Of a stretch of DNA of 32,360 nucleotides, positions 49-29,429 are shown in pieces (the first letter of the stretch is position 1; every line of letters starts with the position of its first letter). The notes under the pieces are model-generated. The model saw only the letters and a program-made list of their open reading frames with translations. It did no database searches and was not told the origin of the DNA. The stretch covers positions 4,190,104 to 4,222,463 of the forward strand of contig NC_057760.1 of assembly GCF_004010195.1 (NCBI RefSeq), given 5' to 3'. Position numbers and translations under genes: made by a program. Source of the stretch: Chiloscyllium plagiosum. Taxonomy: Eukaryota.

Positions 49-129
49 TCTTAGTTACTCCCTTTCTATAAGATCTACATTCCTTTTCCATCCCTCTGCA
101 TCAGGCAGAAGGAGGTAAAAGATCTACTC

Positions 130-728
130 GGATTGCTGTGTAAGTGGCTTGTCTGGCCGAATGGCTTCGGTCTGTTCCTTCTTCACAAGCTTGATGGGCT
201 GAGTGTCCTTCTCATGTTCCCCTGTCACGGTCTCAGGTACCTGATTGTCTCGCTCTTGTTCTTGAGTAAGAGGTCCTCCTCCTGCTGCTGTTAAAGAGGC
301 TTCAGGGTTTATGGAATCTACCTGTTGCTGTGCAATAGTTTGAGGGATTGAAGGGCTTCATCATGTTATTCCATTCCAGGATTGGGAAATATTGAATGGC
401 CTCCAACGCCCCTGAAATGGTTTTGACTGTGTGATTCGTCTTCTCATGTTCATTTACACCAAACATGTGGCTGAATTAACTTCTCATTTCCAACAAAATG
501 TCTGAATGGGCTCAATGGCCCTTCTTCAATCCCTTTGTGACCTCTCACATTATCTGTATTGCAGATTTTAAAGGCTGAATGGTTTGATTCAGTTGGTGTG
601 TAACAGGAAATGGTTGCTGCATGACCTACTCCTGGTCCACTGCTATAGGCTTGAGGGATTGATTGAACTCTTGTAACTGCTTGTCAAGCTCAAGAGGCTG
701 AATATCCTTGTTCAGTTGTGTATATAGG
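130..728. repeat. Degenerate ~42-bp tandem array A (unit resembles AACAGGCTCGAGGGGCTGAATGGCCTCCTCCTGTTCCTGTGT)
   Basis: GAATGGCC-like anchors at 159, 201, 243, 350, 394, 433, 473, 513, 577, 619, 661, 700; collinear similarity to 10500-11020. Confidence 0.75.
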
Positions 729-1808
729 GTCAACAAATTAGAGAAAACCTTCAAGACCATCAATAATACTCTTGCTGGCATTAAATTCACTAAAGAGGAG
801 GAAAACAACAACAAACTGCCATTCCTAGATGTCACAGTAGGGCGAAAAGCCAATGGGGAACTTCAAACCGGCGTCTACAGGAAAAGAACACGTATGGACA
901 AAATATTGAACTATGGAAGCAATCATCCCAACATCCACAAGCCAAGCTGCATCAGAACATTATTTCAACAAGCCAACACACACTGAAACACAGAGAAACT
1001 ACGCAGAGCAGGAGAAAATTACCTGTACAGTGTATTCAAAAAGAATGGGTACCCAATGAACACAGTCTGCCTATGTCTCAGCAACAAATCCAAACAAATA
1101 GATGAAACATGTCCAGACACCCTAACCACTCTCCCCTACATCAAAGGCATCTGGGAAATGACTGCCAGACTACTCAGACTCCTTGGCATCATGGTAGTCC
1201 ACAAACCCACCAACACACTAAAACAGCAGCTAGTGAACTTGAAAGACCCTATACAGACAACAAGCAAAACTAATGTCATTTACAAAATACCGTGCAAAGA
1301 CTGTAACAAACACTACATTGGACAAACAGGCAGAAAACTAGCCACAAGGATACATGAACATCAACCAGCCATAAAACAACATGACCCTCTCTCACTAGTA
1401 TCCTCAGATACAGATAAGAAAGGACACCACTTCGACTGGGACAACATATCCATCCGAGGACAAGCCAAACAACGACAAGCACGAGAATTCCTAGAATCAT
1501 ATCATTCCATCCAGAACTCTATCAACAAACACATCAAGTTAGACCCCATCTACTACCCTCAAGAAAAAGAACAGGAAGTGACATCACCACAGAAAATGAC
1601 ATTACCACAGGAAATGACATTGCCATCCCGAAGAAACTCAAACATATAAATAGAAAGCAGGAACTATCAGCAGTGATTCGCCTGAGGCTCACTGAAGATG
1701 TTACCTCGTAGGGTGATGAAACATCTGGAAATTAACCTTCCAGCTCAGCGAGCAGACCTACATGCCGAACCTCAAACTAACCTACAAATCTTCTCAAAAC
1801 TCGCTAAC
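729..1808 (+). mobile_element. Penelope-like element (Poseidon-like), 5'-truncated: RT C-terminus, GIY-YIG endonuclease and 3' pLTR
   Basis: ORFs 708-986 (IKFTKEEENNNKLPFLDV..VYRK) and 1056-1649 (NVIYKIPCKDCNKHYIGQTGRKLATRIHEH); ends TTCTCAAAACTCGC. Confidence 0.92.
1692..1722 (+). ncRNA. Minimal hammerhead ribozyme core in Penelope pLTR
   Basis: CTGAAGA-t-GTTACC-tcgtag-GGTGAT-GAAAC (core boxes plus stem II). Confidence 0.7.
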
Positions 1809-2990
1809 ACCAGATTTATTAGGAAGCACTAGATTTCGGGGCACTGCTCCTTTAGCAGGTGGTTGTGGAGAAAAGGACCATAAGACACAGAATTTATTAC
1901 AAAAGGTTACAGTGACATGTCACTGAAATGATATATTGAATAAACCTGAAAAATTTTGAATGGGTTGCAGGTTTCAGTTATTTTGGCATGTGAATCCCAG
2001 AACTTCTTTTAAGTCACCTTCTCTGGATAATGTAAAGTTTTGTAATAAAAGGTGACATCTTAGCTCAGGCAATGCATAAAAGGTGTAAGGTTAATTTGTC
2101 TGTTTCCCAGTCTTGAGTCAGACTGGTTCTATTTCCAAAGTGTAATTCAGAAAATATTCATGAACTGATTGGCTGCATTGACTGCCTGCACATTGTACAT
2201 TTTTGAGCAAAACAAAATATATCTGCAAATATAATTCTGCAAATACAAATTCATGCCATAGACTTACATTTGTGTGCGTGTGTGAATGTGAGTGCACGTG
2301 AGAAAGTATATGTTTGAGTGTGTGAAAGCTTGGTAATGTGTGTGTGCAAGTGTGATGGAGTATAAGCCTTTGAGAGGGTGTGTGCGTCGGTGTGAGCGTG
2401 GGAGTGTATGTGTATGAAAGAGAGAGTGTGTATGAGAGACAGTCTGTGTGAGTGTGATTATGTAAGAGTGTGAGTGTATGTGTGCTTGTGTGTGTGTAAG
2501 TGTGTGTGTGTGAGTGTATAGTGCAGTTCGGTCACCTGTAGTGTGACATGAGCCCAAGGTCCCGGTTGAGGCCATCCCCATGGGTAACAAACTTGGTTAT
2601 CAGCCTCTGCACGGACAATTTGCATTGTTGCCTGTCCCGAAGTCCACCTTGAAGGATGGTCATCCGGAGATCCGAGACTGAATGTCCAGGACAGCTGAAG
2701 TGTTCCACAACTGGGAGGGGAACACGCCTGTCTGGTGATTGCTGCATGGTGTACATTCACGTCATAGCGCCTGCTTGGTCTCGCCAGTGTACCATGCCTT
2801 GGGGCATTTGTGCCTGCTATGTATGTGATAGACAACGTTGTCCGAGTTACATGAATACCTGCCATGGACACGGTGGTTGGTGTCCCCACAGGTAATGTCT
2901 TCCAGTGGTCGACATGAGAGCGTTGTACCGTGTTGTGTTCGATGTTCTGAAGGCTGGGCAGTTTGCTGCAAACATGCTCACCAGTATCCT
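1809..2990 (-). mobile_element. Penelope-like element 3' part (GIY-YIG endonuclease, TG-rich 3' UTR, pLTR)
   Basis: Frameshifted minus-strand peptides SCNSDNVVYHIHSRHKCPKAWYTGETKQ and EHFSCPGHSVSDLRMTILQGG..QRLITKFVTHGDGLNRD; degenerate HHR near 1833-1859. Confidence 0.85.
2270..2520. repeat. (TG)n-rich low-complexity tract within the Penelope 3' UTR
   Basis: Interrupted gtgtgt/gagtgt runs. Confidence 0.85.
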
Positions 2991-2994
2991 TCCA

Positions 2995-3648
2995 TATAGA
3001 TGTCCCCCTACACAATAACAGCAAAGAGGCGAAACGAGTGGAGATTGTCAAGCTCCTAGGAGTGGTCATCAACAGCAAGCTTTCTTGGACTCTTCGTTTG
3101 GACACATGGTTACAACAACATCCCTTCTTCCTCAGACAGCTGAGAAAATTTGGCATGACAATGAATACCCTTGCCGACTTTTATATATGTGCTATCGACA
3201 GCATTCTGTCTGGATGTATCACTACCTGGTATGGCAACTGTACCATTCAAGATCAGAGACGGCTACAGAGAGTGGTGAACTCGGCCCAGACAATCACAAA
3301 GACCAACTTTCCATCTGTAGAATCCATTAACCAGGCTCGCTGTCAAGAAAAGGCTGCCAGCATTCTCACAGATCCATCCAACCCTGGCAATGTTTTTCTA
3401 CGGCCTCTACCATCGGGGAGAGGGTACAGAGGCCTGAACGCAAAAGTTTCTACCCTACTGTTGTTAGAATACTGAATGGACTCACAAACTCTTAGCATTT
3501 GCCTGTACCTGTATTTTTGTTTTTGCTGCTGTTTACCTATTATTTACTTATCTATGCTACTTAAACTGATCCGCCTGTATTGCTCACACGACCAACCTTT
3601 TCACTGTGCCTCGATACTCGTGACAATAAATTCAATTCAATTCAATTC
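2995..3648 (+). mobile_element. Rex1/Babar-type LINE 3' end
   Basis: ORF 2963-3475 (KLLGVVINSKLSWT..FFLRQLRKFGM..FYICAIDSILSGCITTWYGNC..LPSGRGYR); AATAAA then (ATTCA)n tail at 3625-3648. Confidence 0.85.
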
Positions 3649-3659
3649 AGGTGAGGAAG

Positions 3660-3990
3660 TGCATCACTTTTCTGGGCCAACACATTCATCCTAGGACTAG
3701 CCAAACAGAGACACACTCAAGACTTCCTAGAAGCATGGCATTCCAATCAGAACTCTATCCACAAACACACCGATTTGGACCCCATCTACCACCGGCTGAC
3801 AAAAAGAACAGAAAATGACATCACCAACCCAAGGAAACTTAAACACATAAATAAAAAGCGGGACACAACACTGAAAGCTCACTGATGATGTTAAATAATG
3901 GTGATGAAATGTCTGAAAATGAACCTTTCAGCTCAGCGGGCAAACTTACATCCAAAACCAAACCTGACCTACAAATCTTCTCAAAACTCA
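3660..3990 (+). mobile_element. Penelope-like (Poseidon-like) 3' fragment with HHR-like core at 3882-3909
   Basis: Homologous to 1425-1805; CTGATGA..GAAA; ends ACAAATCTTCTCAAAACTC. Confidence 0.85.
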
Positions 3991-5760
3991 TGGACTTATC
4001 ACTCCACATGTTTTTCCAAATTTCCAGCACATCTTCCTGCTTAACATCAACCAGTTCGAGCTTATCAGTTTGTGTCACACTGTTCTACAGATGGCAAGGT
4101 CTGTCTCACTGGTGGAAGCTGAAGCAAAGTATTCATTAGGAACCTCCCCTACACCACCTCGGACCCCACGCACAAGTTCCCTCAGATATCCCTGATCGAC
4201 CCTCACTCTGACCATCCTCTTGTTCATCAAATAAGTGTAGAATGCCTTAATTCTACATGCCAAGGCTACTTAATTCGCCCTTTTTGCTCTTCTAAGTTCA
4301 TTCTTCAGTTAATTCCTGGCTTCTGTGTTACTCTCTGGAGCCCTGTTTGATCCATCCTTCCTCAAAATTAAGGAAGCCTCCTTCTTTCTCTTGACTAGAT
4401 GTTCCACATCTCTTGTCATCCAAGGTTCCTTCAATCTACCATCACTTTCCTGCCTAAATGAAACAAAGCTATCCAGCACACGCAACAAGTGCTCCATATA
4501 AACAACCTTCATATTTCTGTCATGCTTTTCTTTGACAATATCTGTTCCCAAATTAAGGTCCAGAGTTCCTGCCTAATAGCAGTGTAATTGTCCATCCACC
4601 AATTGAATACTTTCCCTTTCCACCTGCTCCTATCCCCCTCCATGAAGATAGTAAAGGTCAGGGAGTTGTGATCACTATCACCAAAATGCTTTTCCACCAA
4701 GAGATCTGACAACTGAACTGGTTCATTGCAAAGCATTAATTATAATGTGGTCTCCCCTCTAGTCGGCCTAATGACAGGTTAAGTCAGGAATCCTTTCTGG
4801 GCACACCTGACAAATTCTGCTTCATCCAAACTATTTGCACTAAGGAGGCTACAAACAATATTAGGGAAGTTGAAGTCCCCCATTGCAACAATCCTGTTAC
4901 TTCTGCAACTTTCTAAGAACTGCCTCCCAATCGGCTCCTCCGTGTCACCATTTCTATTGGGGTGTCTACAGCAAACTCGCAAAAAAGTGACTGCTCCTTT
5001 CCTGTTTCTGATCTCCTTCCATAACGACTCAATAGACAAACCTTCCTTGACGACCTCCCTTTTTGTAGCTGTTATAATATCAGTGAATAGCAATGCCACT
5101 CCTCCACCTCTTTTACCTCGATCCCTATTCCTTTTGAAACATCTAAACTCTAGAATATCCAACGACCATTCCTGCCCTGTGGTATTCAAGTCTCCATAAT
5201 GGCCACAACATCATAACTCTGAGCACTGATCCATGCTCAAAGTTCATCGCTCTTATTCCTGACACTTCTTGCATGAAAGTAGCTACACTTCAACTAATCA
5301 CACTGATTGCAAATTTGCCCTATCAACTGTCAATCCTTCCTCACAGACTGTTTTCAAGCTGTATTTTCCAGTTCACCAGTTATACCCATCCTCTGATCTT
5401 TAGCTCCGATTTCCCCAGCCAAACTAGGTTAAACCGTCCCAAAGAGCTCTAACAAACCTCCCACCCCTCTGTTGGTACCCCTCTAGTTCAGGAGCAATCC
5501 GTCCTCCTTGTACACATCCCACCTTCACCACGAGGTATCCCAATGATTCACATTTATGAAACCATTCCTCCTACAACAGCTCTGCAGCCAAGTCTGTTCC
5601 GAGCTTCACCAGCATGTGGCACCGGTAACAATCCTGAAGTTGCTACTCTGATAGTCCTGCCTTTTAGCTTCCAGCCTGTATTCACTTTTCGGGTCCTCAT
5701 CAGTTTTCGTAGCTATTTCATTGGTACCAATAATCTTAACCCCCGTTAAGAATCCTGTCA
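3991..5760 (-). mobile_element. Decayed CR1 LINE (APE endonuclease region and end of ORF1)
   Basis: Minus-strand peptides RGKRGGGVAL, MGDFNFPNI, HFGDSDHNSL, EPWMT, NEYFAS. Confidence 0.88.
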
Positions 5761-5929
5761 ACTCAAATGCAGGCAACCCTGACTCTGGGAGCTGGGAGTC
5801 ATTGAATATTCATGAGGCTGAGGCAGACATTCGCATGATGAGCACCAGGGTCAAAGGTTTTTGTGCATGGATGGGGAAATTTGGAACTGAGACAACAATT
5901 ATATCCTCCATGGGTCTTATTGAACATTT

Positions 5930-6763
5930 CAGCAAGTTCAAGGACTGAATGGCCTACTCATGCATGTTATCCGCCTTTTCCTAGTTTGTAACAATCTAGC
6001 TCTCCTCCTATCTCTATGCAATAGTTCGATGGAGGCTAACAGACCTGCTGGAGTTCCAGGGTCAGAGTTCCTCGGGGGAGGGGGGGAGGGGGGGGGTGCG
6101 AATGAACTCCATCTTGCCTATGATTTCTGTTGAAGCGGTTGAGTATCGTTGTCCAGCCCACTTTCACCAGCTTTGAGAAATAAATTTGGAAAGGGATGGA
6201 AGGACAGAATGCCTTCAATATTATTTTGCTCTTTGGTTGCCATCGGAATTAATCCTTGCTCCTGATTTCAAGAAACATTCTTAAGGAACTTTATGTCTTC
6301 CTTGCTTTTGATCATTATTAGACCAACATGAGAGGCTGAACCTCTCTTGCTCCGATGTGACATGTCCTGCAACTGAACGGAGTCTGGCTGGCCCTGTAGA
6401 AAGGTCAGAGGGGTTTACTGGCGTCATCATGTTCCTGTTCAACAGTTTTGAGAGGCCGATTGGCCTTCCCCTGCTCCTCTTTAACATGCTGGAGAAAATT
6501 AATGGCTCTCCCATCCGTCTGTAACATGTCCGAAAAACTAAAGGACAAAACAATGCTAGAATGATGAGCAATGTTAAACTGTATCTGATGGAAGTCCCTC
6601 CCTTCTACATTACGGAAACCCAAACAACACAATATACTGCAGGGCTGTCCTCTCCCTAATACTCTAGTTTTGAATGTTCCCTTAGAAAAATGTTCCAACA
6701 TTCCAGCTTTCCACCTCTTCAAGTGTGAATAGGCTGGAGTGAATTAAATGGCCTCCTCCTGTC
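5930..6763. repeat. Degenerate ~42-bp tandem array C
   Basis: Anchors GAATGGCC 5947, TACTGGCG 6416, GATTGGCC 6458, TAATGGCT 6500 (42-bp steps) and AAATGGCCTCCTCCTG 6746. Confidence 0.65.
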
Positions 6764-7465
6764 ATAGAGCATAGAACAATACAGTGCAGAACAGTCCTTC
6801 GGCCCTCGATGTTGCACTGTGAACTAACCTAAGCTCATCCCCCTACACTATCCCATCATCATCCATGTGCTCAACCAAGGATTGTTTAAATCTCCCTAAT
6901 GTGGCTGAGTTAACTACATTGGCAGGCAGGGCATTCCATGCCCTTACCACTCCCTGAAAAAAGAACCTGGCTCTGACATCTGTCTCATATATATCACCTC
7001 TCAATTTGTAGCGATGTCTCCTTGTGCAAGCTGACATCATCATCCTAGGAGAAAGAGTTTCACTGTCTACCCTATCTAATACCCTCTTAACCTCTTCTTT
7101 CTAATGAGAACAGACCCAAGTCTCTCAGCCTTTCTTCATAAGAGCTTCCCTCCAGACCAGGCAACATCCTAGTAAATCTCCTCTGCACCTTTCCCTATGC
7201 TTCCACTATCTTCCTGTAATGGGGCCACCAGAACTGTGTACAATATTCCAAGTGTGGCTGCACTAGCGTTTTGTATGGTTGCAGCATGACATTATGGCTC
7301 CAGAACTTAATTGCTCTATCAATAAAACCTAATACACCGTATGCCTTCTTCACAGCACTACCAACCTGGGTGGCAATTTTCAGGAATCTGTGTACATGGA
7401 CTCAAAGATCCCTCTGCACATCAACATTACCAAGAATCTTTCCATTGACCCAATATTCTGCCTTT
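6763..7465 (-). mobile_element. CR1/HER1-type LINE 3' end
   Basis: Tail CATAGAGCATAGAACAATACAG..TTCGGCCC on + strand; minus peptide TRRHRYKLRG..RARFFFQGVVRAWNALP. Confidence 0.9.
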
Positions 7466-8044
7466 AACAGGCAGATTGGGACAGATTTACTTCATCCTTT
7501 CATGAACAGCGGTCTCGAGCTCTGAATGATGTCTCAAGGTTATGAAAGGATTTGATAACGTGGCACGAAAAATTAACAGTGGTATTATACAAATGCAGTG
7601 AACAATAAATATATTACCCTGATTTATGGTGTCGAGAACTTGCCCCACCAGTCATTTTATGCAGTCAGTCTGTTATTTTAGCCCTGCCTCCTTTCAGAGT
7701 GGAAGATAAAAACCCAGTACCATTCTGGCACTACTCCCACATACAAGGAATGAAGACATAAAGGTTTAAATGACTTACAGTCCATCCTTATCAAACCCCA
7801 TATATTCCAGTCAGACAAAATGAATGTTTCCTTTTGTTGTGATATGTTGTACCAAAGGGGTTAACAGTATTTGTTTGTTCGGTGACTGTGCTTAATGTCA
7901 GTCTCCATGGGTTCTAATTATCTCAGTGGAGGTTGCCATCTTTACATGATAAATAGGCTACGTTCAATGTGTTATCCTGTAGAATGTGTGGTAGCATCAC
8001 CGACAGCACTAACAGGAAAGAGCAGCTCCAGAGGAAGGAAGAGG

Positions 8045-8149
8045 AGAGATCAGAATCTGAGAGCAATAGACTAGAATGTTACAAGAATGGATCAGAATCT
8101 GAGAGCGATAGACTGGAATGCTGCTACAATGGACAGGAGTTTGTCCTGG
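8045..8149 (+). repeat. 21/42-bp tandem repeat spanning the GPCR start codon
   Basis: GATCAGAATCTGAGAGC at 8048 and 8090; heptads RDQNLRA/ID*NVTR/MDQNLRA/IDWNAAT/MDRSLSW. Confidence 0.85.
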
Positions 8150-8267
8150 TTTGTTTGGTATTTTTCTAAAAACCATGATAAAAGGCCATTGACATGGCGG
8201 ATCACGTATGTACTTTACATATTTAAATATTTTTATTTTCCAATCATGGTTATCGTTGGTGTTCCTG
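8087..8267 (+). CDS. gpr139-like: First coding exon of a GPR139-like class A GPCR (N-terminus plus first half of TM1)
   Basis: MDQNLRAIDWNAATMDRSLSWFVWYFSKNHDKRPLTWRITYVLYIFKYFYFPIMVIVGVP followed by a phase-1 donor G|GTAAGT at 8267/8268; strong Kozak (aagaATGG). The F/Y-P-I-x-x-I-V-G-V-P end, with an intron before the TM1 Asn, matches GPR139/GPR142-type genes as I recall them. Confidence 0.72.
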
Positions 8268-8969
8268 GTAAGTCTTACTGTCAAGTTACTATTCCTATAA
8301 ACCATGCATAATTGTATAACTGTTCTTTTTATATATTCTGCAGTCATTCCCGTTGTTAATTTACCTGCACACTGTCATCACAGGAGGGACAGAAAGATTC
8401 ATATTAAAGTTAGAAACAGACAATTGATTAACTGAGCCACGTCGGCGAAACAAGGGGGAAAAAACGGGGGAGTGGGATGATCTTGAGGAACAAGAACTAG
8501 TGGGTGTAATCACAAGAATGAGAAAACTGAATAAAGACAGATTAGCTGAAATGGTTAGTTACATCAAATTCTCAATATATCTTACAGTACCGGTCCATTT
8601 ACCAGAAACTGGGAATAGATGACAGCCCATGGATCATGCCAGTTCCATGCTCGGTCAACTAGATTATCTGCCCAGCATGGGAAACATTGCAAACTTTAGC
8701 AGTATATTGGTACTATGCTTGCACTTGACAACTGCTTAGCATGGGGAAATTTGAAGCCAATGTTGTGAGTGACAGTAAAAGGGTCTCTTAGAAATTTATT
8801 TCTCTATTTCTCCATTGCACCATAACAAGTCAGGCAATCTTTTTTTCTGGCAGTGGTAGGTGTGCTGGGATGGGGGTAATGGCCGATGTGTGAATCAATG
8901 TTAGAGAGAGAACACACAGGGGGGAAATCAACTTTAATCTGAATAACTGGCAGGAGTTTCTGTAATTGA

Positions 8970-9030
8970 CAGAGAGAGAGAGGGGGAGAGAAAGGGGGGA
9001 AGAGAGAGAGAGAGAGAGAGAGGGGGAGAG
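8970..9030. repeat. (GA)n/G-rich microsatellite
   Basis: agagagagagagggggagagaaagggggga... Confidence 0.85.
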
Positions 9031-9624
9031 ACGAAGGGACATTTAATTTCATGGACAGATTAGATGATGTGCTTGAGAATATTAAAATAATGGTATTGAT
9101 AGACCCAATAACTATATAGATCAGTGTGCATAGGAATAATGGATGGATGGGATTTTGGTGTGAGTTCAGATCTGAGCCGCAGAGGACCAACTCAGGTTTG
9201 TTTTATGCAGTTTAAAGCTGGGAGTGTCAACAGTAGATAATTGACATCATTAATGCTGTTATCCATTGATCAGGTTTCAAATAACAGATTGCATGAGCCA
9301 GTCAGGTATATTCTGGAGATGTTAGTGTTAAAGTTAGGAGCGCATGAGGAACTGGAGAAACTCTCACTCCATTAATGTCACAGTGTGCCCATGCACAGTA
9401 CATCATGTTGGTGAATACCCACTGTCATGACAGCAACACAGCCTCTTCATTCAGAAGCATTCAGCCATTCTCATTGTGTTTGGGTCTCCCTATTAGGAAA
9501 AAACAATGGAATCATGGATAAAGGCTGCCCACTTGATGGTTATTTCAAAATATCCTCTCACTCACCAATCCCCATCCCCAACCATAAGCATCAAAATATC
9601 CCATGTGTACTGAGACCAATTGAA

Positions 9625-10270
9625 CCATTGGGAACATCAGGGAACAGGCCATTTAGATAATAAGTTGTCTTTCTGCTCTGCTGGCCAGAATGGATAACTC
9701 TAAACCTATCCATGTTAAGTTTCATTTGTCACATGCTGGCCCATTCACCTAACCTCTCCATATCCATTTGTAAATCTTATACATCTTCATTGCAACGCAC
9801 TTTTCTCTGTATTTTAGAGTTATCTGACAAATTGGCTGTAGTATTTTCTGTCCCCTCACCTGAGTGATAATATAGAATATGAATTGTTTAGGCCTGAGGA
9901 TTGAACTTCATGGCATCCAAAACGTTGCCAACCAGAAAATGGTCCATCGATTACAAATCACCGCATTTTGTTTGGTTCACCAAACCTCTATCCAAGCTAT
10001 TAAACTGATTAATTACTGCTGACACTTTGCCGTCTTATTTTGCAGATTTATCTTTTGTACAGCACCTTATTAAATGCCTGCTGGAAGTCTACATATTCTA
10101 CATTTACAGGATCCCCACAAATCACCTTGCTTTTCCCATCTTTAGAGAACTCGAGAAAATAATTCAAACACCACTTTTCCTTCATAAAAACATACTGACT
10201 CTGATGGATTCTGGTTTGTCTTTGCAAATGTCTTGTTATTAATTCCTTGTTGATGGATTCTAACAATTTG
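9625..10270 (-). mobile_element. Decayed CR1 fragments (tail and RT region)
   Basis: Minus ORF 10048-10266 IHQSQYVFMKEKWCLNYFLEF..VEYVDFQQAFNKV. Confidence 0.8.
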
Positions 10271-10389
10271 ACTTGAATCCCAATAGTTCACTAGTTTTTT
10301 TATTCCCTAGTGAAGATAATTATTTTAAGATCTTCCCTTTCTTCCCTTTAAGATCTTCCCTTTCTATAATCTCCCTGTTCACTTTCCAA

Positions 10390-11110
10390 TTCCTGTGTAA
10401 TGGGCACAAGGCCATAAAGAATTTGCTCCATTTGCTGTGTAAGAAGCATGAGTGGCTGCATGGACTCATTCTGTTCCTAGAGCAGGAGGCTGAAGGTCTG
10501 CTTGTCCTCCTCCTGTTGGTGTGTAAGAGGAATGGGATCTTGTGGAGTCTTCCTGTTGCTGTTCAACAGTTTGACGAGATGAAGGGTCTCCTCATATGTT
10601 TCCAAAATGGAATTGAGATGCCAAATATCTTCCTGCTGCACCCTTGAAATGGGATTTAGGGAGTGATTTGTCTTCCCCCCCTTTCCATAAAAGAGACACG
10701 TGGTTGAATTACCTCCTCCTTCCTCATAAAATGTCTCAAATAGTTTTGTATCCTTCCTCAATTCCTTTGTTATAACTTCGATTGGCTAAATGATCTTCTC
10801 ATATTCCAGTGTACCTATCTCCAGCCACTTTGTAACCTCTTCCAGTTCCTGTTTTGAAGATTGTGGAGGATGAATAGGCTAACACTGTTGCTGTTCAACA
10901 GGATACCGGTGTTGCAAGGCTTAGTCTATGCCCAGTCTTAGAGGTTCGAGGAGCTGATTGGCCTCCTCCTGTCACTTTATGTCAAGCTCCAAAGCTGAAT
11001 AGATTTGTTCTATGCTGCTGTAACAGAGTCGAAGGCTTGAGTATATTTTTACTGTTCCTGTTTAACAAGCAGGAGACGCAGAATGGATTATTCTATTTGT
11101 TGTACAATTG
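10390..11110. repeat. Degenerate ~42-bp tandem array B (paralogue of array A)
   Basis: Anchors at 10458, 10500, 10581, 10665, 10706, 10788, 10830, 10872, 10914, 10956, 10997, 11039, 11081. Confidence 0.8.
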
Positions 11111-12321
11111 GCTTCTGTTGCTTACTACTTCTGATCTTCTATTTAAAGTAAGATCATCTTTCGTTCTTGTAAATTCCAATGTGTATTGGGTCAATCTGTT
11201 CACTCTTTTGTTTCAAGCAAACACCTTGATTACATGAATCAATTGAGGGAACCACCCTTGAGTTGCTTCCAATGTAACAATATTCTTTCTTCAGTGAGGA
11301 GACTAAATCTGGAGTCACGACTCCAGATGTGATCTCACTAAGATCCTTTACAGTGACAGCTGCACTTTTGCAGTCTGCTGTAGGATTTCCACCCAGGTTA
11401 TGCACGGCATTGTTGAAAGATCATAGTCTTTCTCTATTCCACCAGCATAACGGGAGATCTAGTGAAAATGTCATAATGACATAGAAACATACAAACGTAG
11501 AAGATAGGATAAGGAGGAGACCATTTGGCGCCCCGATGCTGCTCCACCATTCAGCACGATCATGGCTGATCATCCAACTGAATCACCTAATCTGCTTTAT
11601 ACCCATAACCTATAGTGCCTTTCATCCCAAGTGTTGTATCCCACTGCACTTGAATACATTTAATGTTTTAGCATCAACTACTTCCTGTGGCGATGAACAC
11701 CACAGGCTCACCAGTTTTTGTGTGAAGAAATGTCTCCACATCACCGTCCTAAATAGTCCATCCAAAATCCTCAGACTGTGACCCCTGGTTCTGATGCACA
11801 AAGCATCGGGATCATCTTCCCTGTATCAACCTGTTCTGGTTATAATTTTAATAACTTCCCCTAAGATTAATTCTCATCCAGCAAAAACAATCTTAACGGC
11901 ATCAATCTCTTCTTATATGTCAATCCTGCCGTCCCCAGAATTAGCCTGGTAAACGTGTGCTGCATTCCTTCGAGAGTAAGAGTGTCCTTCCTCAGAAAAG
12001 CGGACCAAAACTGCACACACTATTCTAGATGTGGCCTCACCAAGGCCCTGTATAACTGAAACAAGACATCCCTGCTCCTGGATTTGAAACTTCTCACAAC
12101 AAAAGCCAACATACCATTTGCCTTCTTTACCGCGTGCTGTACCTGCAAGCTTACCTTCAGCAACTGGTGTACAAGGGCCCCCAGGTCACACTGCACACTC
12201 CCCTCTCCCAATTTACAGCCATTCAGGTAGTAATCTGCCTTCTTGTTTTTGCTTCCAAAGTGAATAAATTCGCATATTTTCAAATTATATCGCATTTGCT
12301 ATTGATTTGCTCTTCTTAACC

Positions 12322-12452
12322 AATTTGATGAAGGGGTCCTGCCCAAAACGTCGATTTTCCTATCCCTCAGATGTTGCCTGACCTGCTGTGCTTTTCCAGC
12401 ACCACTCTAATCTTGACTCTAATCTCCAACATTTGCAGTTCTCACTTTCGCC
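12322..12452 (+). mobile_element. Penelope pLTR-derived short insertion with degenerate HHR
   Basis: TTGATGAAGGGGTCCTGCCCAAAACGTCG..CTCACTTTC; reverse complement of the 21281-21470 type terminus. Confidence 0.8.
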
Positions 12453-13585
12453 TACTCACCCAACCTGTCCAGATCATGCTGAAGCATCTCTGCATCCTCG
12501 TGACAGTTTACCCTCCCACCCACTTTGGTATCATCTGCAAAATTTGAGGGGTTACATTTTTTTCCCTTATCTAAACCATTAATACATATTGTGAATAACT
12601 GTGATCGTAGCACCCATCCCATGACACCCACTGGCTACTGCCTGCCAAATTGAAAAGGACCCATTAATTCCTCTCGTCCAATCAGTTTTCTATCCATCTC
12701 AATACACTTCCGCCAATCCCATCCACTTTAATCTTGCACAATAATCTAATATTCTGGATATTGTCAAAGGCTTTCTGAATGTCCACGTATGCCATATTGA
12801 CTGGCTGCAAACTTGTCAACTCTACTCGTTGTGTCTTTATGTCATTCCAACAGATTTGTCAAGCATGATTTCCCCTTCATAAATCGTTGCTGATTCTGTC
12901 TGATTCTGCCATTGCTTTCTCAATGCTCTACTTTAAAGTCCTTGACAACAGATTCGCAAAAATCCCCCACTATCGATGTTCACCTTACTGGTCTATAATT
13001 CTCTGATTTCTGTCTACCTTCCTTTTTGGAACAATCCACAGACCTATTGCTTTTTCTTGGCTAATCTGTATACTTCTCCCTTGGATTGGATATTCTCTCT
13101 AGTTTCCTTGTAATCTATGGATTGGCTCTCTTACCCATTTTGTTCTGAACCGGAATAAACAGTGGTTTAACCCCCCCCAAGCGTTAATTGAACATTTGTG
13201 ATTGTCTATCCATTGTCGTCCCATTATGTAATACTCCCTAATCTATCAAAACCAACTCGTGTCTCATATATTCCTAGTTTCCTTTATCAAGATCCAGCAC
13301 CCTAGTCTCTGAATTAGTTTTTCTTACTCTCCAACTTTATAAAAATGTCTATCATATTATGCTCCCTTATCCCGAAGGGGTCTTGAACATCTAGATTGGC
13401 AAATATTCCCTTCTGACTAGATAGTACCCAGTCTATGATGACCTGTTCTCGTTGGTTCTTCCACAATGTGGTCAGGAGACCATTCTGTGTACACTCCAAG
13501 AATTCCTCCTCGACGGCATTGGGGATAATTTGATTTTCCCAATCTGTGTACAGCTTAAAATCATCCATGATCACCAAAAATCCCC

Positions 13586-13697
13586 AAAAATCACCAAAAT
13601 TCCCATTCCTGAAGAAGGGCTTATGCCCGAAACGTCGATTGTCCTGTTCCCTGGATGCTGCCTGACCTGCTGCGCTTTTCCAGCAACACATTTTCAG
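13586..13697 (+). mobile_element. Short Penelope pLTR-derived insertion with intact hammerhead core and 11-bp TSD
   Basis: CTGAAGA-a-GGGC-ttat-GCCC-GAAAC at 13609-13633; CAAAAATCCCC at 13575-13585 and 13698-13708. Confidence 0.85.
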
Positions 13698-15329
13698 CAA
13701 AAATCCCCTTATCACCTGCATTTCGAATATCCTATTCCATTCCATTCCCAACATCACCACTGCACTATGCTGGTCTATATTGACACCAAATAATGTTTGT
13801 TTGCCCATGGCGTTTCTCAACTCGAACCATACATACTCCAATGTTGTCAGAGCTATTATTCTTTCTCAGTATTGTGTTAATTTCATCTTTAACGAGCAAT
13901 GGTATTCCACCACATTTTCATTTGTACTTGTTTATCTGTCTTTCCTAAATACTGAATACCCTGAGAAATTCAGTTGCCATTCCTGCTCACCTTGCAGTCA
14001 TGCCTCCCCAATCCTAATTAGATCATACCCGCTTAAATCTGTCTGCGTGATTTGTTCATCCACGTTATTTCGAATGCTTCATGCCTTTAGATGCCAAGTC
14101 TTCAAATTTGTTCCACTGGGAAATTTCCATACTTCTATACAATTCTTTGGTGCATAAAAATATTCACCTGTTCTGTCCGTTACCTTTATAGTTTGGTAAC
14201 GATATGCCACATTGCTAACCAGCACTCTTACTTCTTCCTTTAATTTGGATATTCTAACTTTCCCTATAACTGTAACCCCGCACCACCTATTTATTTTAAG
14301 ACCTGTCTACAGCCCTGGTTATGTGATTCAGTTGGACTCTGGTGCCAGCAAGATTCAGATGAAGACCGCTCCATCCAAACAGATCCCTTCTTCCCCAGTA
14401 TTAGCACCAAAGGCCCGTGAATTCAAAATGATTTCTCTCCCATCAGCCTTTGAGCTATGCATTTACCTGATTAATACTATTGACCTTTTGCCAAATCGTT
14501 CGTTTCTCAGGTAGTAATATAAAGATTCATCCTGTTTTGGTTCTGTCTTTTAATTTAGCTCCTAGCTGTCCATATTAATTTAGCAGAACCTCTGCTCTAA
14601 TTTTATCTGTGCTGTTGGTACTTATGTGAATCAGTCACTGGAACTTTACCCTCCCATTCCAAGTTCACGTTCAGTCCAGATGAGATATCCCGAACCCAAG
14701 CTCCAGGCAGGCCACACAACCTTTGGGACCCTCAAACTTGTTCACAGAGAACAGTCAACCAGCTCTCAAAACATGCAGGAACAATACATCACCTGACTCT
14801 CCATCTTTGTTTTGGATTAGTTTTGGATTTGTAACTTTTTCTTTATCTCTGTGTGTCTTCTAAACCTAAACACACATTGTAACCAATAATTAACAAGGTG
14901 TAATTTAACGCAGACTCATTATTAGCCAATAAATCACAGCTTTCCTGTAATATCACCTTTCAGTTTCCCCTACTGTCAAACCTCAGAACCTTTCCCAGGT
15001 TGTTTTCCGTTTGCTCCTGGTCAGCTTCATTCCCGAAGTGGAGGCTCCAAATCTCCAAGGTCAGTTTTCATATGACTTGCCTTTCAAGGTAGCTCTCCAT
15101 TCACTCTCGTTCAGCTCCATTTCCAGAATGAAGGCCGCAAATCGCCAAGGCAAGTTTTTAACCTTTGAGAAGAACGATAATGATATGGCGAAATTAAGTC
15201 AACGTCGAGATGGGCCCTAACAAATATCTCTCTGGAGACTATGTCACTCAAATTTCACTCAAACTGCTAAAGTGGACTTTAGAAACATCAAGGAGAAACA
15301 AACGTTGATAGGAGTTAAATATCAATGTC

Positions 15330-19040: not shown

Positions 19041-19998
19041 TTTTTTTCTCTTTTTTTTTATATATTTTTTTTCTTTTTCCCTACACTACCACCGAAGTGT
19101 GGTAGTGCTTATTTTTTTTCCCCAGCACCCATGGTGTGTGTGTGCAGGTGTGAGACACAGTGAAAGACACAAAGTGCACAAATCTTTATTCAAATTCCAC
19201 CACCAGGAAGATAGGAAAACACCCGGGTGGCCAGTGACAAACACTGCCCTTCACAAAGGACAGTGCTGTGTGATCAAAAACAGTGAAGGGGAGGGTAGGG
19301 ACTAAATCAAAATAGAGTTGGAGGGAGAAATGATGCACTCCACTCTCTGCGGCGCTCACCTCTCCCTGAACTCCTCCAGGGTGTTGGTGGACACCACGTG
19401 CTCCTTCTCCAAGGACACCCGGGCTCTAACGTAACCGCGGAAGAGGGGCAGGCAGTCGGCTCTAACGACCCCCTCCATGGCCCGNNNNNNNNNNNNNNNN
19501 NNNNNNNNNNNNNNNNNNNNNNNNNNNNNNNNNNNNNNNNNNNNNNNNNNNNNNNNNNNNNNNNNNNNNNNNNNNNNNNNNNNNNNNNNNNNNNNNNNNN
19601 NNNNNNNNNNNNNNNNNNNNNNNNNNNNNNNNNNNNNNNNNNNNNNNNNNNNNNNNNNNNNNNNNNNNNNNNNNNNNNNNNNNNNNNNNNNNNNNNNNNN
19701 NNNNAAGGGAACAAAATTAAAATTCCGGAGGTGGCTCAGGTTGTGGGGCACAGGCTCCCGCGGGAAGTATGGGACCTTGGGGCCAATGTGAAATTCCGTC
19801 CGGGCTGGGGTGAGCGCGGACGGGATCCCACCGCACACCTGAGCGTCCTCCAACTGGTGCACTACGTCGGGTCCGAGCACCGCCGTTTTGAGGCGTCGGA
19901 TGGCGGTGGCCACGTACTGGACGTCTACCGCTGCCCTGCCTGCTATGTCCTGCGGCAGCGTCCAGCCCAGGCCCCCGGCACCCAGCACGTCCCCGACC
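19041..19998 (-). mobile_element. Young 5'-truncated Tx1/L1-clade LINE with 14-bp TSD
   Basis: Poly(T) at ~19035-19078 on +; minus ORF ending ..DCLPLFRGYVRARVSLEKEH; CTCAGCTATTTCTT at 19027-19040 and 19999-20012; GC- and CpG-rich. Confidence 0.85.
19485..19704. other. Assembly gap (220 N)
   Basis: Run of n. Confidence 1.
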
Positions 19999-21185: not shown

Positions 21186-21279
21186 AACCCACAAACCTAT
21201 CAACACGCTTAAATAGAACTAATGAACCAAAAGGATTAATTAAATGTGACCAGCAAAATTAACGTCATTTACAAAATGG

Positions 21280-24200
21280 CGAAAGTGAGGATTGCAGATG
21301 CTGGCGATCAGGGTCAAGATTAGAGTGGTGCTGGAAAAGCACCACAGGTCAGATAGCATTCAAGCTGTGCAGCAGCAGTCTATACAGGGCCCTCCTTTTT
21401 ATATCTTTGAAGGATAGCATTCAAGCAGCAGAAAACTTGACATTTCGGGCAAAAGCCCTTCATCAGGAACAAGGCAGGGACCCTCCAGGGTGGAGAGATA
21501 AATGGGAGGGCGTGAGGCTCGGGGGAGGCGAGCTACGAGTGCAATAGGTGGATCGAGGTGGGGATGCAGATGATAGGTCGGAGAGGAGGGTGGAGTGGAT
21601 AGGTGGGAAGGAAGATTGGCAGGTAGTACAGGTCATGAGGATGGTGCTGAGCTGGCAGGTTGGAACTGGGGTAAAGTTGGGGAAGTGGAAATGAGGAAAC
21701 TGGTGAAGTCCACATTGATGCCCTGGGGTTGAAGTGTTGCAAGGCAGAAGTTGAGGTGCTCTTCCTCCAGGCGTCAGGTGGTGAGGGAGTGGCAGTGGAG
21801 GAGGCCCAGGACCTGCATGTCCTCGGCAGAGTGGGAGGGGGAGTTAAATGTTCGGCCACGGGCAGTGGGGTTGATTGGTGCAGGTGTCCTGGAGATGTTC
21901 TCTGAAGCACTCTGAAAGAAGGCATCCAGTCTCCCCAATGTAAAGGAGACCGCATCGGGAGCATTAGATACAATAAATGTCATTTGTAGATGTGCAGGTG
22001 AAACTTTGATGGATGTGGAAATCTCTTTTGGGGATGGAGGTGAGGGGGAAGGTGTGGGTGCAGGTTTTGCAATTCCTGCGGTGGCAAGAGAAGGTGCCAG
22101 GAGGGGACAGTGAGTTGTTGTGGTGCATGGACCTGACCAGGTAGTTATGGAGGGAATGGTCTTTGCGGAAAGTGGTGGGGCGGGAAATAGATCCCTGGTG
22201 GTGGGGTCCATTTGTAGGTGGCAGAAATGTCGCCGGATGATGTGGTTTATGTGGAGGTTGGTGGGTTGAAGCTGAGGACAAGGGGTGTTCTGTCCTTGTT
22301 GCGGTTGGAGGGGTAGGGTTTGAGAGCAGAGGTTCGGGACGTGGATAAGATGCATTGGAGGGCATCTTCAACCATGTGGGAAGGGAAATTATGATCTTTA
22401 AAGAAGGAAGCCATCTGATGTGTTCTGTAGTGGAAGTGGTCCTACTGGGAGCAGATACGGTAGAGGAGGAGGAATTGGGAACATGGGATAGCATTTTTGC
22501 AGGAGGCAGGGTGGAAAAAGGTGTAATATAGGTAGCTGTGGGAGTCGATGGGTTTGTAAAAAATGTCAGTGTTGAGTCGGTCGTCATTAATGGAAATGGA
22601 GACGTCCAGGAAGGGGTGGGAGGTGTCAGAGATGGTCCAGGTGAATTTAAGGTCGGGGTGGAATGTGTTGGTGAAGTTGATGAACTGTTCAACCTCCTCG
22701 CGGGAGCATGAGGTGGCATTGATGCAGTCATCAACATCAGGAAGACGTGGGGAGCAATGCCGGTGTAAGTACAGAACTTGGACTGTTCTACGTAGCCAAC
22801 AAAGAAACAGGCATAGCTGGGGCCCATACGGGTGCCCATGGCTACCCCTTTGGTCTGGAGGAAGTGGGAGGATTCAAAGGAGAAATTGTTGAGCGTGAGG
22901 ACCAGTTCAGCCAAACAAATGAGAGTGTCGGTGGAAGGGTACTGGTGGGGACGCCGGAAGAGGAAGTAAAGGAGGGCATGGAGGCCCTGGTCATGGTGGA
23001 TGGAGGTGTAGAAGGATTGCATATCCATGGTGAAGATGAGGCGTTGGGGGCTGGGGAAATGGAAGTCTTGGGGGAGGTGGAGGGCATGGATGGTGTCTCG
23101 AACATATGTGGGGACTTCCTGGACTAGGAGGGATAGGACAGTATCGAGGTAGGTGGAGATGAATTTCATGGGCAGGATCAGGCTGAGACAATGGGTTGGC
23201 CGGGGTGGTCAGGCTTGTGGATCTTGGAAAGGAGGTAGAATCGGGTGGTGTGGGGTTCCTGAACAATGAGGTTGGAATCACATAGGTGGGAGATCTCCTG
23301 AGCCGATGAAGTTGTGTATGGTCTGGGAGATGATGGTTTGGTGATGGGGAGGTAAGGTCATGGTCGAGGGGGTGGTAGGAGGAAGTGTCTTTGAGTTGGC
23401 ACTTGGCTTCAGTGTTGTCGAAGTCATTGCACCAAACTACCACTGCACCCCTTCATTCGCTGGTTTGATGGTGAGGTTGCGGTTGGAGAAGAGGGAATGG
23501 AGGACTGCGCGTTCTGAGGGTGAGAGGTTAGAGTGGGGGAGGGGGTAGACAATTGAGGCAGTTAATGTCTCAGCAGCAGTTGGAAATGAAGAGGTTGAGG
23601 GTGGGTAATAGGCTAGCACAGGGTGTCCAGGTGGATGGAGTGTGTTGGAGGCAGGTGCAGAGGTCCTCGGAAGGTGGGCAGGAGTCTTGATTGAAAAGGT
23701 AAGGTCAGAGGTGGAGGCAGTGAAAGAAGTGTTCAACGTCATGACGCATTTAAATTCATTGATGCGTGGATGGAGGGCGATAAAGGTAAGGCCTTTGCTG
23801 AGGACTGATCGTTTGTCCTCAGTGATGGAGAGTTCTGTGGTGGATGATGAAAACTCGGCAGGGTTGTGAGCTAGGACCTGCAGTAGGTGTGGAGCTGGAA
23901 GTGGGAGTGGAGCCTGTAACTGGAGTGGCAGTGGGTGGCAGGGGAATGGGGGGAGTCATCAGCAGGGGTGATGTTCCCCTCAGGGTTCTGGAGGGTGGAG
24001 ATTGTGACAGTGGGATCCGTGGGTGGTGTGTCAGCAGTATGCAAGTGATTGGCGTTGGTGGGGCGGAAGTGGTGGCGAACATGGACGTGAAGGGCGGAAA
24101 TGATATCACGCGTGGTGCATGCAAAATCATTAAGTGTGGAAGTGGCTACGGAAGAGGCCATGATGGGGGCGGACGTGATGCCACCGATCGCTGTGGGGAT

Positions 24201-24801
24201 GGTGGCTCTACCGGCCTCGTGGCTAATGGCAGCCAAGCAGTTCCGGAGGCTGGGGGGAAGCTTCTGGAATGTTTCAGGAGTGCTGGTTATGGAGGTGGGT
24301 ATATAAAAGTTTGTTGTACTTACAGTTTTTCATGTTTGAGATGGTGTGGAAACCCTGTTTGTTGAGAGTATGAATTCTTCTTAGGATATAGTACAGAAGG
24401 GGTCCTGTGCAGTTCTAAGAGTGTGTGGCCCTCAGTTGAGGCATAGCTGACTGGAGAGAGGTTTGGTGGCGGTGCATTGATGCAAGCGTGGAGTGGAGGA
24501 TCCTGTAGGAGAACCGTAGCTGCTGGTTTTGAATTTGTAGTATGTACTGGTTATCCTGTTTGGATCCAAACTGCGCTGTTTTCTGGAATCCATGTGGGAT
24601 TGGTTGGTTGTGCAGGCAGGCAGTGAGGAGCCTGTTTAAGGACATGGTTGAGGAGCTTCAGGGCAGAGAAGATGAGCTGGGGGTTGCAGTGAGAGAGAGA
24701 GAGAGAGAGAGACTCACAGATCCTTGTAGAGAGAGGAGGTGAACTTCTTCAAGGTAGACAACCTGGCAAGAAGATTCACAGTCAGGTTAAAATCAACCAG
24801 G
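21280..24801 (-). mobile_element. Near full-length Penelope-like element (Neptune-like), frameshifted
   Basis: RT motifs TMDMQSFYTSI and KGVAMGTRMGPSYAC; Cys linker CHRRNCKTC; endonuclease start FTCTSTNDIYCI; pLTR with HHR at 21443-21466. Confidence 0.93.
21443..21466 (-). ncRNA. Minimal hammerhead ribozyme core
   Basis: Minus strand CTGATGA-a-GGGC-tttt-GCCC-GAAA. Confidence 0.78.
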
Positions 24802-25715
24802 TGAAAGTGTGGACTGCAGACACTGGAGATCAGAGTCAAGATTAGAGTGGTGCTGAAAAAGCATAGCAGGTCAGGCAACATCCGAGGAGCAGGAAAATTG
24901 ATGTTTCAGGCAAAAGGAATGAGGCAGGGACCCTCCGGGTGGGGGGGAGAGATAAATGGGAGGGTGGTGGGGCTGGGGGGAAGGTAGCTAAGAGTGCAAT
25001 AGGTGGATGGAGGTGGGGATGAAGGTGATAGGTTGGAGAGGACGGTGGAGCAGATAGGTGGGAAGGAAGATTGGCAGGTAGGACAGGTCATGCGGATGGT
25101 GCTGAGCTGGTAGGTTGGAACTGGGGTAAGGTTGGGGGAGGGGAAATGAGGAAACTGGTGAAGTCCACATTGATGCCCTGGGGTTGAAGTGTTGCAAGGC
25201 GGAAGATGAGGTGTTCTTCCTCCAAGTGTCAGGTGATGAGGGAGTGGTGGTGGAGGAGGCCCAAGACCTGCATGTCCTCGGCAGAGTGGGAGGGGGAGTT
25301 AAAATGTTCTGCCACAGGACAGTGGGGTTGTTTGTTGTGAGTGTTATGGAGATGTTCTCTGAAACGCTCTGAGAGAAGGCATTCTTCTCCCTAATGTAAA
25401 GGAGACCGCATCGGGAGCACCAGATACAATAAATGACATTAGTGTATGTGCAGGTGAAACTTTGATGGATGTGGAAGACTGTTTTGTGGCCTTGGGTGGA
25501 GATGAGAGGTGGTGTTGGCGCAGGTTTTGCAATTCCTGCGGTGGCAGGGGAAGGTGCCAGGAGGGGAGGGTTGGTTGTGGAGGGCGTGGACCTGACCAGT
25601 TAGTCACGGAGAGAACGGTCTTTGCAGAAAGTGGAAAGGGGTGGGGAGGGAAATATATCCCTGGTGGTGGGGTCCATTTGGAGGTGGCGGAAATGATGGT
25701 GGATGATGTGGATTA
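24802..25715 (-). mobile_element. Upstream partial tandem copy (endonuclease plus pLTR) of the same Penelope element
   Basis: Direct repeat of ~21280-22250, e.g. TCAAGATTAGAGTGGTGCTG; HHR partly deleted at ~24904-24916. Confidence 0.92.
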
Positions 25716-25717
25716 TG

Positions 25718-26155
25718 CAGCATTTACGAAATGCCATGCAAGAACTGTAAAAAACACTATATCGGACAAACAAGCAGGAAATTTGCCACCAGAATACATG
25801 AGCACCAACTAGTCACCAAAAGACACGACCCATTATCACTAGTTCTCATGCATACAGACAAAGATGGACACCACTTTGACTGGGACAAAACACACATCCA
25901 CGAACAGGCGAAGCAAAGGCACGCACGGGAATTTTTCGAGTTATGGCATTCCAACCAGAACACCATCAATAAACACATCAACTTATATCCCATGTCTTCC
26001 CTTGAAAAAAAGAAATGACATCACCCGCCTTAAGAAACCAAGATCTGTAAATAGAGAGGTGGGACATACCAGCAGCGCTTCACTAGAGACTATCACTGAT
26101 TATGTTATCTAGTCATCATAACAAACCATCTGAAAACAAACCTTCCAGCTCAGAG
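25718..26155 (+). mobile_element. Poseidon-like Penelope GIY-YIG/3' fragment
   Basis: ORF 25731-26018 PCKNCKKHYIGQTSRKFATRIHEH. Confidence 0.9.
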
Positions 26156-26688
26156 AACATTCTTGTGTTAAGGCGTTATGCAAATCCCAGCTATTATCGC
26201 CCGCAGTGAGTGAATGCAATTATCATTCTAAGCTATGGAGGTTCACATTGTTCAGGTTTGATTTCCTCAACGCTCGTCAATGCTGTAATTTTGACTCATG
26301 CTCTGTTTCAATTCTGGACATTAATATTTCTAACGTTATGGTTTTTTTGATCAGAAGTCATTTGTGTTTGACTGAGAGCTGTGCTGCTGCTCTGCTGTTG
26401 GCTCCATTGGTACTCGGTTGGCTAAGTTCATGCCTCACATACTGTGTTGCATACTTGCTCCATGGATGTCCAGCACAGAGATGAGCCATATTTTCAACAT
26501 ATTCTGTGCTGCTGTTTATGTTCCAAATGATCCTGCTGTCAGCAACTTCATCTGGAACTATTAGAAATTTGTATTCTTTTCTCTTTCAGATACTGGTAGC
26601 GATTCCCTGTCAAAACGTCATCATAGTGCTGAAGAAGGCTATCCAGCCCATTATGTCTCTATTGGCTATATACTTGTAAAGTCTACTT

Positions 26689-29203: not shown

Positions 29204-29429
29204 TTTACCTTGAGTAATTCTTTGGCATTCCACATCACAGAGGGCTGTTGGAGCTGGTTCATTAAGTACATTCAAGACTGACATGGACAGATTTTTAATC
29301 AGTGAGAACCAAGGAGAAAATGGAGGAAAAGAGACTTGTGGGTTATCAGATCAGTCACAAGTGGTGGATCAGATTCATTTAGCTGACTGGCTGACTTTTT
29401 CTCCTTTGTCCTATGACTTTATCCTTAGC

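Follow-up and report, generated by a model that had tools for sequence, protein, structure and literature searches.

The 32,360-nt stretch of Chiloscyllium plagiosum DNA analysed here, hereafter the window, carries decayed tandem arrays built, head to tail, from copies of the terminal ~42 nt of a CR1-type LINE tail. We favour, at a probability of roughly 70%, the reading that these arrays are a neutral, LINE-derived minisatellite which decays like ordinary junk DNA and does nothing. Two of the arrays, A and C, go back to a single array, already decayed when it was copied.

Period and extent of the arrays

Array C (10357..11146, plus strand) lies inside a presumed intron and contains 18-19 units (starts 10366, 10400 ... 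11107), among them a run of six of exact length. Its periodicity is strong: autocorrelation over 10390-11110 reaches 0.408 at lag 42 against 0.260±0.017 (z 8.7, 0/500 shuffles), with signal also at lags 84 and 126. Array A (59..728, plus strand) has 16 decayed 42-bp units, starting at 61, 101, 143 ... 684, which show 65.5% identity to the consensus and 48.6% among themselves. Here the periodicity is moderate (130-728: z 3.4 at lag 42 and 4.0 at lag 84, the best period being matched by 4/200 shuffles). Array A is ended on the right by a Penelope-like (GIY-YIG) insertion (729..1802, plus strand, bounds approximate), whose Pfam GIY-YIG match (E=0.0027) is weaker than the curated cut-off and which has paralogues at 3645-3989, 25721-26159 and 26844-27325.

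A first-pass annotation of this DNA had proposed three phase-conserved arrays. Those at 130-728 and 10390-11110 are indeed periodic, but 5930-6763 is not a single array: its best overall period is 51, matched by 26/200 shuffles, and it comprises a LINE-type tail, two doubtful units, a non-periodic stretch, a core of five units and one isolated unit. Directly before this region lies a probable LINE 3′ end (5780..5965, plus strand), consisting of a weak 3′-region match followed by a tail-like unit at 5937-5963. At the DNA level it matches 29243-29320 with a score of 1578 (null maximum 1394, 0/100), its tail piece is 81% identical to the unit consensus over 26 nt (0/200), and BLASTP with two of its frames gave no match. 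The two doubtful units that follow (5980..6063, plus strand; profile scores -2.0 and 1.6) show a borderline match to 35-144 (score 1889 against a null maximum of 1797). Only the array B core (6318..6523, plus strand, 5 units) carries the 42-bp period in this region (z 5.0 over 6310-6540), and it is colinear with neither A nor C. The isolated unit (6729..6762, plus strand) is well kept and is cut by a minus-strand LINE relic at about 6762-7470.

The anchors named in the earlier annotation are in register, and its two best-preserved pieces were located at 6731-6762 and 10943-10972. Phase, which it had described as conserved, is kept only locally; exactly 42 bp separates the units in just 19 of 38 spacings overall (7/16 in array A, 10/17 in array C and 2/5 in the B core), with a net drift of -49, -7 and -4 bp, respectively. 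Among the off-length spacings of these arrays, 1/19 differs by a multiple of 3.

TRF reports none of arrays A, B and C, and Rfam gave 0 matches in the window. No further arrays were found in the window, only single tail-like matches at 28185, 32096 and 11542 (minus strand), and autocorrelation detected no periodicity at 14300-14700 or 31950-32130. In being short and head to tail (period 42; 16, 5 and 18-19 units) the arrays agree with TE-derived minisatellites. Homogenised satellite DNA was considered and rejected, since the arrays are <0.8 kb, their units are 46-49% alike and neighbouring units are no closer than others.

Origin of the unit in a LINE tail

The proposal that the unit stems from a LINE 3′ tail is supported by alignment of the consensus to tails. 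Of nine tail regions compared with the consensus dimer, four scored beyond all 200 shuffles, three were reached by 1-2/200 and two gave no match. At 11500..11545 (minus strand) a CR1-type LINE relic has a 3′ tail that is the single-copy counterpart of the unit and shows 70% identity to the consensus dimer over 44 nt (0/200 shuffles). Moreover, the loose-end consensus at 11539 (414-441 contigs) agrees with the unit at 26/30 letters, counted by eye. Upstream of this tail is a FADD motif (12452-12634, minus strand). The source element is characterised by this motif and by a very high copy depth, and its fragments are named by neither Pfam nor PDB; judging by ORF2 motifs, it is a putative CR1. The unit may be identical to the HE1/HER1 tail. 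A hairpin like that of the tail can form in the best units, but it is weak (z -1.5 to 0), no more stable than in shuffles.

Duplication of a decayed array

Unit for unit, the segments 10357-11010 and 59-713 are colinear duplicates. The two align with 68.7% identity over 595 columns, and their score of 14340, compared with 5056±899 for shuffles of unit order, was reached by 0/500. Within each array, adjacent units are about as alike as all pairs (0.47 against 0.49 in A, 0.46 against 0.46 in C). Being duplicates, arrays A and C are not independent evidence, and the three arrays of the first-pass annotation cannot be counted as such. Array B was rejected as a third colinear copy, as unit-order shuffles did equally well or better in 487/500 cases against C and 238/500 against A. 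No homology that would prove a segmental duplication was found between the A and C flanks in the window, a point against the minisatellite reading.

On the minisatellite reading, one LINE tail would have been doubled, either because the reverse transcriptase re-primed at the 3′ end or through DNA slippage, and then expanded to about 18 units via slippage or unequal exchange. Homogenisation may then have ceased and the units decayed, after which the decayed array would have been duplicated as a block, the copy keeping its orientation at a distance of 10.3 kb. Both copies were presumably cut later by insertions and deletions.

An alternative that we consider unlikely is that tandem LINE tails formed a non-autonomous retroelement, of which A and C would be two insertions. 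Its master array, with a unit order fixed and diverged beforehand, would be transcribed and spread by the CR1 enzyme through recognition of the tail. In favour, the same unit order, derived letters and indels occur in A and in C, which begin to resemble each other at about the left edge of the array. Each unit is a tail region, the best ones forming the tail-like hairpin, if weakly, and the repeat is present at an unrelated basking shark locus. There is also a precedent for sharing of a tail, listed in PMC3747384, between the shark HE1 SINE and the HER1 LINE. However, B is colinear with neither A nor C, and abundant copies at least 86% alike were not seen over the middle and right of C (depth 7-102, bins 10566-10674 and 11002-11110). 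Moreover, neither a target-site duplication nor a promoter was identified, and two copies in the same orientation 10 kb apart fit local duplication. We also regard as unlikely a hitherto undescribed, ancient group of shark retroelements consisting solely of tandem CR1 recognition tails, which the CR1 enzyme would copy in fixed higher-order blocks, with A and C both inserted from one master.

Very unlikely, in our view, are stacked insertions, in which short 5′-truncated LINE tails landed successively on an earlier tail so that the array grew by retrotransposition and not by slippage. The star-like relationships of the units and the apparent beginning of region B at a LINE 3′ end would suit this. 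However, tails truncated independently would be expected to differ greatly in length, whereas the units measure 40-43 bp, later deletions aside, and no spacers or terminal microsatellites lie between them.

Indels, substitutions and constraint

The first-pass annotation had inferred from the kept period that indels were unusually few and that length or frame might once have been constrained. Neither part held. By the test which that annotation itself proposed, the indel:substitution ratio between A and C is 11/186, compared with 101/1951 in TE relics (p=0.61). The latter figure pools 15 pairs within the window, which are not independent, from 18 aligned; two of ≤40 columns and one pair (29400/17000) barely above the null were excluded before pooling. 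Against our reading, part of the divergence in these TE pairs arose under coding constraint, and the three highest have 0.074-0.090 indels per substitution, about twice the arrays. In like-for-like simulation, the 23 indel events per 565 mismatches in the arrays fit 0.03-0.045 indels per substitution, with simulated rates of 0.06 and 0.09 lying about 2 SD above the real events. On the neutral reading, the 42-bp period survives because neutral DNA here gains about one indel per 22-33 substitutions, fewer than one per unit.

Some observations lean towards the earlier view. Array C has 7 indel events (0.026 per mismatch) and array A has 13; simulations in which the lower of the two had ≤7 made up 50% at a rate of 0.03, 14% at 0.045 and 1% at 0.06. 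One unit column is 97% conserved, a level that 0-4% of simulations reach, and this counts against a neutral reading. As for coding, stop codons (11/507) and the synonymous share (70/209) both match neutral simulation, no codon-position effect was found after base adjustment (p=0.30), and GC drops from 57% to 43-49%. A constrained or coding repeat was thus rejected, as no frame-keeping indels, stop deficit or synonymous excess were found.

Orthologous DNA gives the same picture, for array C only, in two related organisms and with low power for indels: divergence slower than in the flanks was not found. Differences in array versus flank were 41/857 versus 72/about 1890, 13/411 versus 50/1588 and 10/439 versus 51/1728 in three orthologues (p=0.25, 1.0 and 0.52); for contig X18 the flank records sum to 1874, and net lengths imply no fewer than 9 flank indel events. 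In organism C the array of the orthologous contig contains a single gap letter (p=0.13), which again leans towards the first-pass annotation. A 376-bp stretch (10848..11223), flanked by CCT at both ends, is missing from contigs of organism B in two studies and present in organism C; its loss takes about seven units. One RNA run (2% read) yielded only partial matches of <95%, from other repeat copies, and is neutral as to transcription.

Selection on length or frame, whether for regulatory spacing near the exon or in a former 14-residue coding repeat, is accordingly the least credible of the alternatives and is largely refuted: the few indels of array C, the single gap letter in organism C, the open consensus frame and a basking-shark gene model that reads four units as protein speak for it, but off-length spacings are rarely multiples of 3, codon position, stops and synonymous share look neutral, orthologous divergence is neutral with the 376-bp loss besides, and the shark model is partial, uncharacterised and without a homologue among 557 candidates.

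Candidate exon between the arrays

A candidate first coding exon lies at 8087..8267 (plus strand). It has an open frame with in-frame ATGs at 8087 and 8129, a hydrophobic end whose hydropathy averages 1.75 across 19 residues, and a phase-1 donor, GTAAGT, at 8268; GGTAAGT occurs nowhere else on the plus strand of the window. Its label as a GPCR first exon gained no database support: word-based protein, Pfam, Atlas and PDB searches gave no usable match, and a second exon (TM2-7) was not recognised in the window. It may be the first exon of a class A, GPR139-like GPCR.

Occurrence beyond the window

The 42-bp repeat probably belongs to a wider shark family. A basking-shark gene model, at a locus unrelated to that of the window, ends in four translated copies better kept than the window arrays; at the protein level 10, 7, 9 and 10 of 14 residues are identical to the translated consensus. 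The model is the sole member of its cluster, and a word-based protein search for homologues of its repeat, with 557 candidates, returned only itself. The second of two profile matches (P0003) was rejected as a leucine-rich look-alike, repeating every ~55 residues and not every 14. A tandem motif scan of metagenome contigs gave 0 hits, a peptide scan of the same gave one locus (L001) that has no array and was attributed to chance, and a word-based protein search with the array frame found nothing. No 42-bp CR1-tail repeat of sharks was found described in the literature searched; Repbase, Dfam or repeat table S2 of bioRxiv 2025.06.08.657570 could include one.

Tandem repeats that arose from the 3′ end of a LINE are a known kind, to which the window arrays add another case. 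The chicken HinfI (SCR1) repeat (Li and Leung 2006), as described in the reviews PMC9659126 and PMC6947457, likewise goes back to the 3′ portion of a CR1 LINE, but it is a satellite that includes the 3′ UTR and part of ORF2, whereas the unit here is the last ~42 nt only, in heavily decayed arrays of <1 kb. Minisatellites derived from Alu in human and from B1 and MaLR in mouse (PMC6947457) also have a short unit taken from a retroposon present in many copies; they were enlarged through slippage or unequal exchange and dispersed, as may hold for the window repeat too. Here the source is a shark CR1-type tail, and the arrays are very old, one having been duplicated after decay. The 3′-terminal part of a non-LTR element also gave rise to the common cetacean satellite (3′ end of L1) and to a satellite of Drosophila (3′ region of HeT-A; PMC9659126), but these are large satellites from other LINE clades. 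HE1 and HER1 of sharks and rays (PMC3747384) show reuse of a LINE tail in another repeat; HE1, however, combines a tRNA-derived head with a single tail, and no head is seen in the window arrays.

These arrays bear on repeat annotation, as TRF misses them and false leucine-rich repeats of 14 residues can enter shark gene models. A tail-only retroelement, if that reading were true, would represent a new route for minisatellite spread, whereas the arrays as we read them are one more LINE-tail repeat. They also show that selection is not needed for a period to stay clear when units have diverged by about 50%.

Results

The 42-bp repeat unit runs on the + strand in array A (130-728), array C (10390-11110) and the core (6310-6540) of region B (5930-6763), and no further array of it was found within the window. 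Scored against 500 dinucleotide shuffles, period 42 was strong in array C (z = 8.7; 84 and 126 also present), moderate in array A (z = 3.4, with 4.0 at 84) and present in the core of region B (z = 5.0). Region B as a whole was not periodic at 42 bp, its best period being 51 (matched in 26/200 shuffles), and a control intron lacked periodicity in the identical test. Training of a cyclic profile on the window's sequence converged on a single 42-mer consensus, to which units are 62-66% identical; unit against unit the figure is 46-49%, and adjacent units are no more alike than distant ones. The first-pass annotation had reported conserved phase across all three stretches. Its anchors do keep register, but they represent the best stretches, and spacing is exactly 42 in only 7/16 (A), 10/17 (C) and 2/5 (B) cases; one of 19 off-length spacings differs from 42 by a multiple of 3. 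A short tandem duplication (10324-10349) lies immediately left of array C.

The unit originates in a LINE 3′ tail, as first proposed. A consensus dimer matches the tail (~11500-11545) of a minus-strand LINE relic at 70% over 44 nt, with 0/200 shuffles as good. Independently of this alignment, contigs running off the relic at 11539 (414-441 per run) yield a consensus matching the unit at 26/30 letters, counted by eye. Among nine LINE tail regions tried against the dimer, four scored above all shuffles, three were equalled by 1-2/200 and two gave no match. The relic carries a FADD motif and, going by its ORF2 motifs, may be assigned to CR1; Pfam and PDB gave the LINE fragments no name. The start of region B may be a LINE end of similar type, with a weak DNA match and no protein match.

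Arrays A and C are two copies of one array. BLASTN recovered three colinear blocks (67-68%), and the full alignment spans 595 columns at 68.7% identity (K2P 0.41). Along the diagonal, corresponding units have 3-9 departures from the consensus in common, as well as indels, and shuffling unit order lowers the score from 14340 to 5056±899 (0/500 reach the real score). Given that units diverge from the consensus by ~0.49, slightly more than half of the decay predates the duplication. Flank homology was sought and was not demonstrable, because array A sits against the edge of the window and an insertion has cut it. Region B, tried as a further colinear copy, failed the unit-order shuffle test.

A past constraint on length or frame had been suggested from an apparent scarcity of indels; this is not supported. 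A against C gives 11 gap events to 186 mismatches, compared with 101 to 1951 in pairs of transposable-element relics (15/18 pairs pooled; p=0.61), or 0.045 indels per corrected substitution against 0-0.09, a ratio that in the relics may be biased low through coding history. The 23 real events agree with like-for-like simulation, which gives 21.1±4.7 at 0.03 indels per substitution and 27.0±5.2 at 0.045, whilst rates of 0.06-0.09 yield 34-36, ~2 SD above the real count. The open frame of the arrays has 11 stops in 507 codons (neutral expectation 0.024-0.026±0.008) and a synonymous share of 70/209 (neutral 0.335), with no significant codon-position effect (p=0.30). G and C in the units have decayed faster than A and T. 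Besides the possible bias in the relics, two observations count against a neutral reading: array C by itself has only 7 indel events, and one unit column is 97% conserved (column 25, a T, kept more often than in 96-100% of neutral simulations run at a uniform rate).

Contigs from three DNA runs of two related species, organisms B and C, were aligned to 9040-12300, where array C is the sole array covered. Divergence looks neutral: array and flanks differ by 4.8% vs 3.8% in organism C, and by 3.2% vs 3.1% and 2.3% vs 3.0% in organism B, none significantly. Gaps in organism C amount to one letter across the array, vs at least nine events inferred for the flanks (p=0.13). In organism B (two studies), 10847 is joined to 11224, removing about seven units, among them the best-kept unit and three of the five anchors of array C; a 3-base repeat sits at each end of the absent segment. 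Since the first four absent units have copies in array A, this is a loss; it is read from contigs, and another allele may retain the segment. One organism B run also lacks 23 bp at the tandem duplication left of the array. At ~9650, contigs of organisms B (two studies) and C depart from the window and continue with at least 800 other letters, which is either an insertion there or a deletion in the window's genome.

Between region B and array C lies an open frame that starts with the ATG at 8087 or at 8129 and closes with a hydrophobic stretch at a GTAAGT donor (8268). We presume a likeness to first exons of shark GPR139-like receptors; database searches gave this identity no support, and no second exon was recognised in the window. 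Distance is the sole link of the arrays to this candidate exon. A 42-bp (2 x 21) duplication unrelated to the arrays (8048-8133, 86% matched) overlaps its start and supplies the second in-frame ATG at 8087.

The window as a whole is vertebrate DNA rich in repeats; the GIY-YIG, reverse-transcriptase and endonuclease fragments in it all score below Pfam cut-offs. A Penelope-like element has several copies within 6 kb (20166-20985/22988-23813; 21418-22251/24879-25717); likeness is 80% and 88%, and the copies of one pair are inverted. An 18-bp three-copy repeat occupies the equivalent spot in two GIY-YIG element copies (1571-1625, 27141-27195). One short repeat is present as six pieces with 71-93% likeness (12326-12453, 13600-13696, 21278-21352, 24799-24916, 30995-31109, 32132-32229), inserted in older elements. 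GC-rich sequence unlike its surroundings borders a 220-base assembly gap (19486-19705). CR1-group elements are given as 22-34% of shark and ray genomes in PMC13343379.

Discussion

Our best reading, at a probability of roughly 0.7, is that a LINE tail doubled and expanded into a minisatellite, which would then have frozen and decayed; the decayed array was duplicated, and decay continues. Birth and expansion are the inferred steps; the data show the origin of the unit, the duplication and a decay that looks neutral. Template slippage at a LINE end is described in PMC3747384, and PMC6947457 and PMC9659126 cover minisatellites derived from transposable elements by slippage and unequal exchange, and CR1-derived repeats in chicken. 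That the arrays are instead a tail-only retroelement seems improbable; a homogenised satellite and a coding repeat were rejected as classes. In both workings and class the arrays are a minisatellite derived from a transposable element.

In their accessible text, two shark genome papers (PMC10620051; bioRxiv 2025.06.08.657570) treat tandem repeats solely in bulk, and no published description of this 42-bp repeat was found in the literature searched, repeat databases being outside its scope. A profile of nine translated stretches had two matches among 1.84 billion proteins, one set aside as its period differs. The other, XP_078393440.1, is a partial, uncharacterised protein of the basking shark Cetorhinus maximus and points to a shark as the source of the window. 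It closes with four copies of 14 residues, of which 10, 7, 9 and 10 are identical to the translated consensus, compared with 5-9 for 18 window units. From the protein, we read this end as what may be a better-kept array read through by a gene model, in which case the repeat may form a wider shark family. The feature in C. plagiosum is real, and its kind ordinary.
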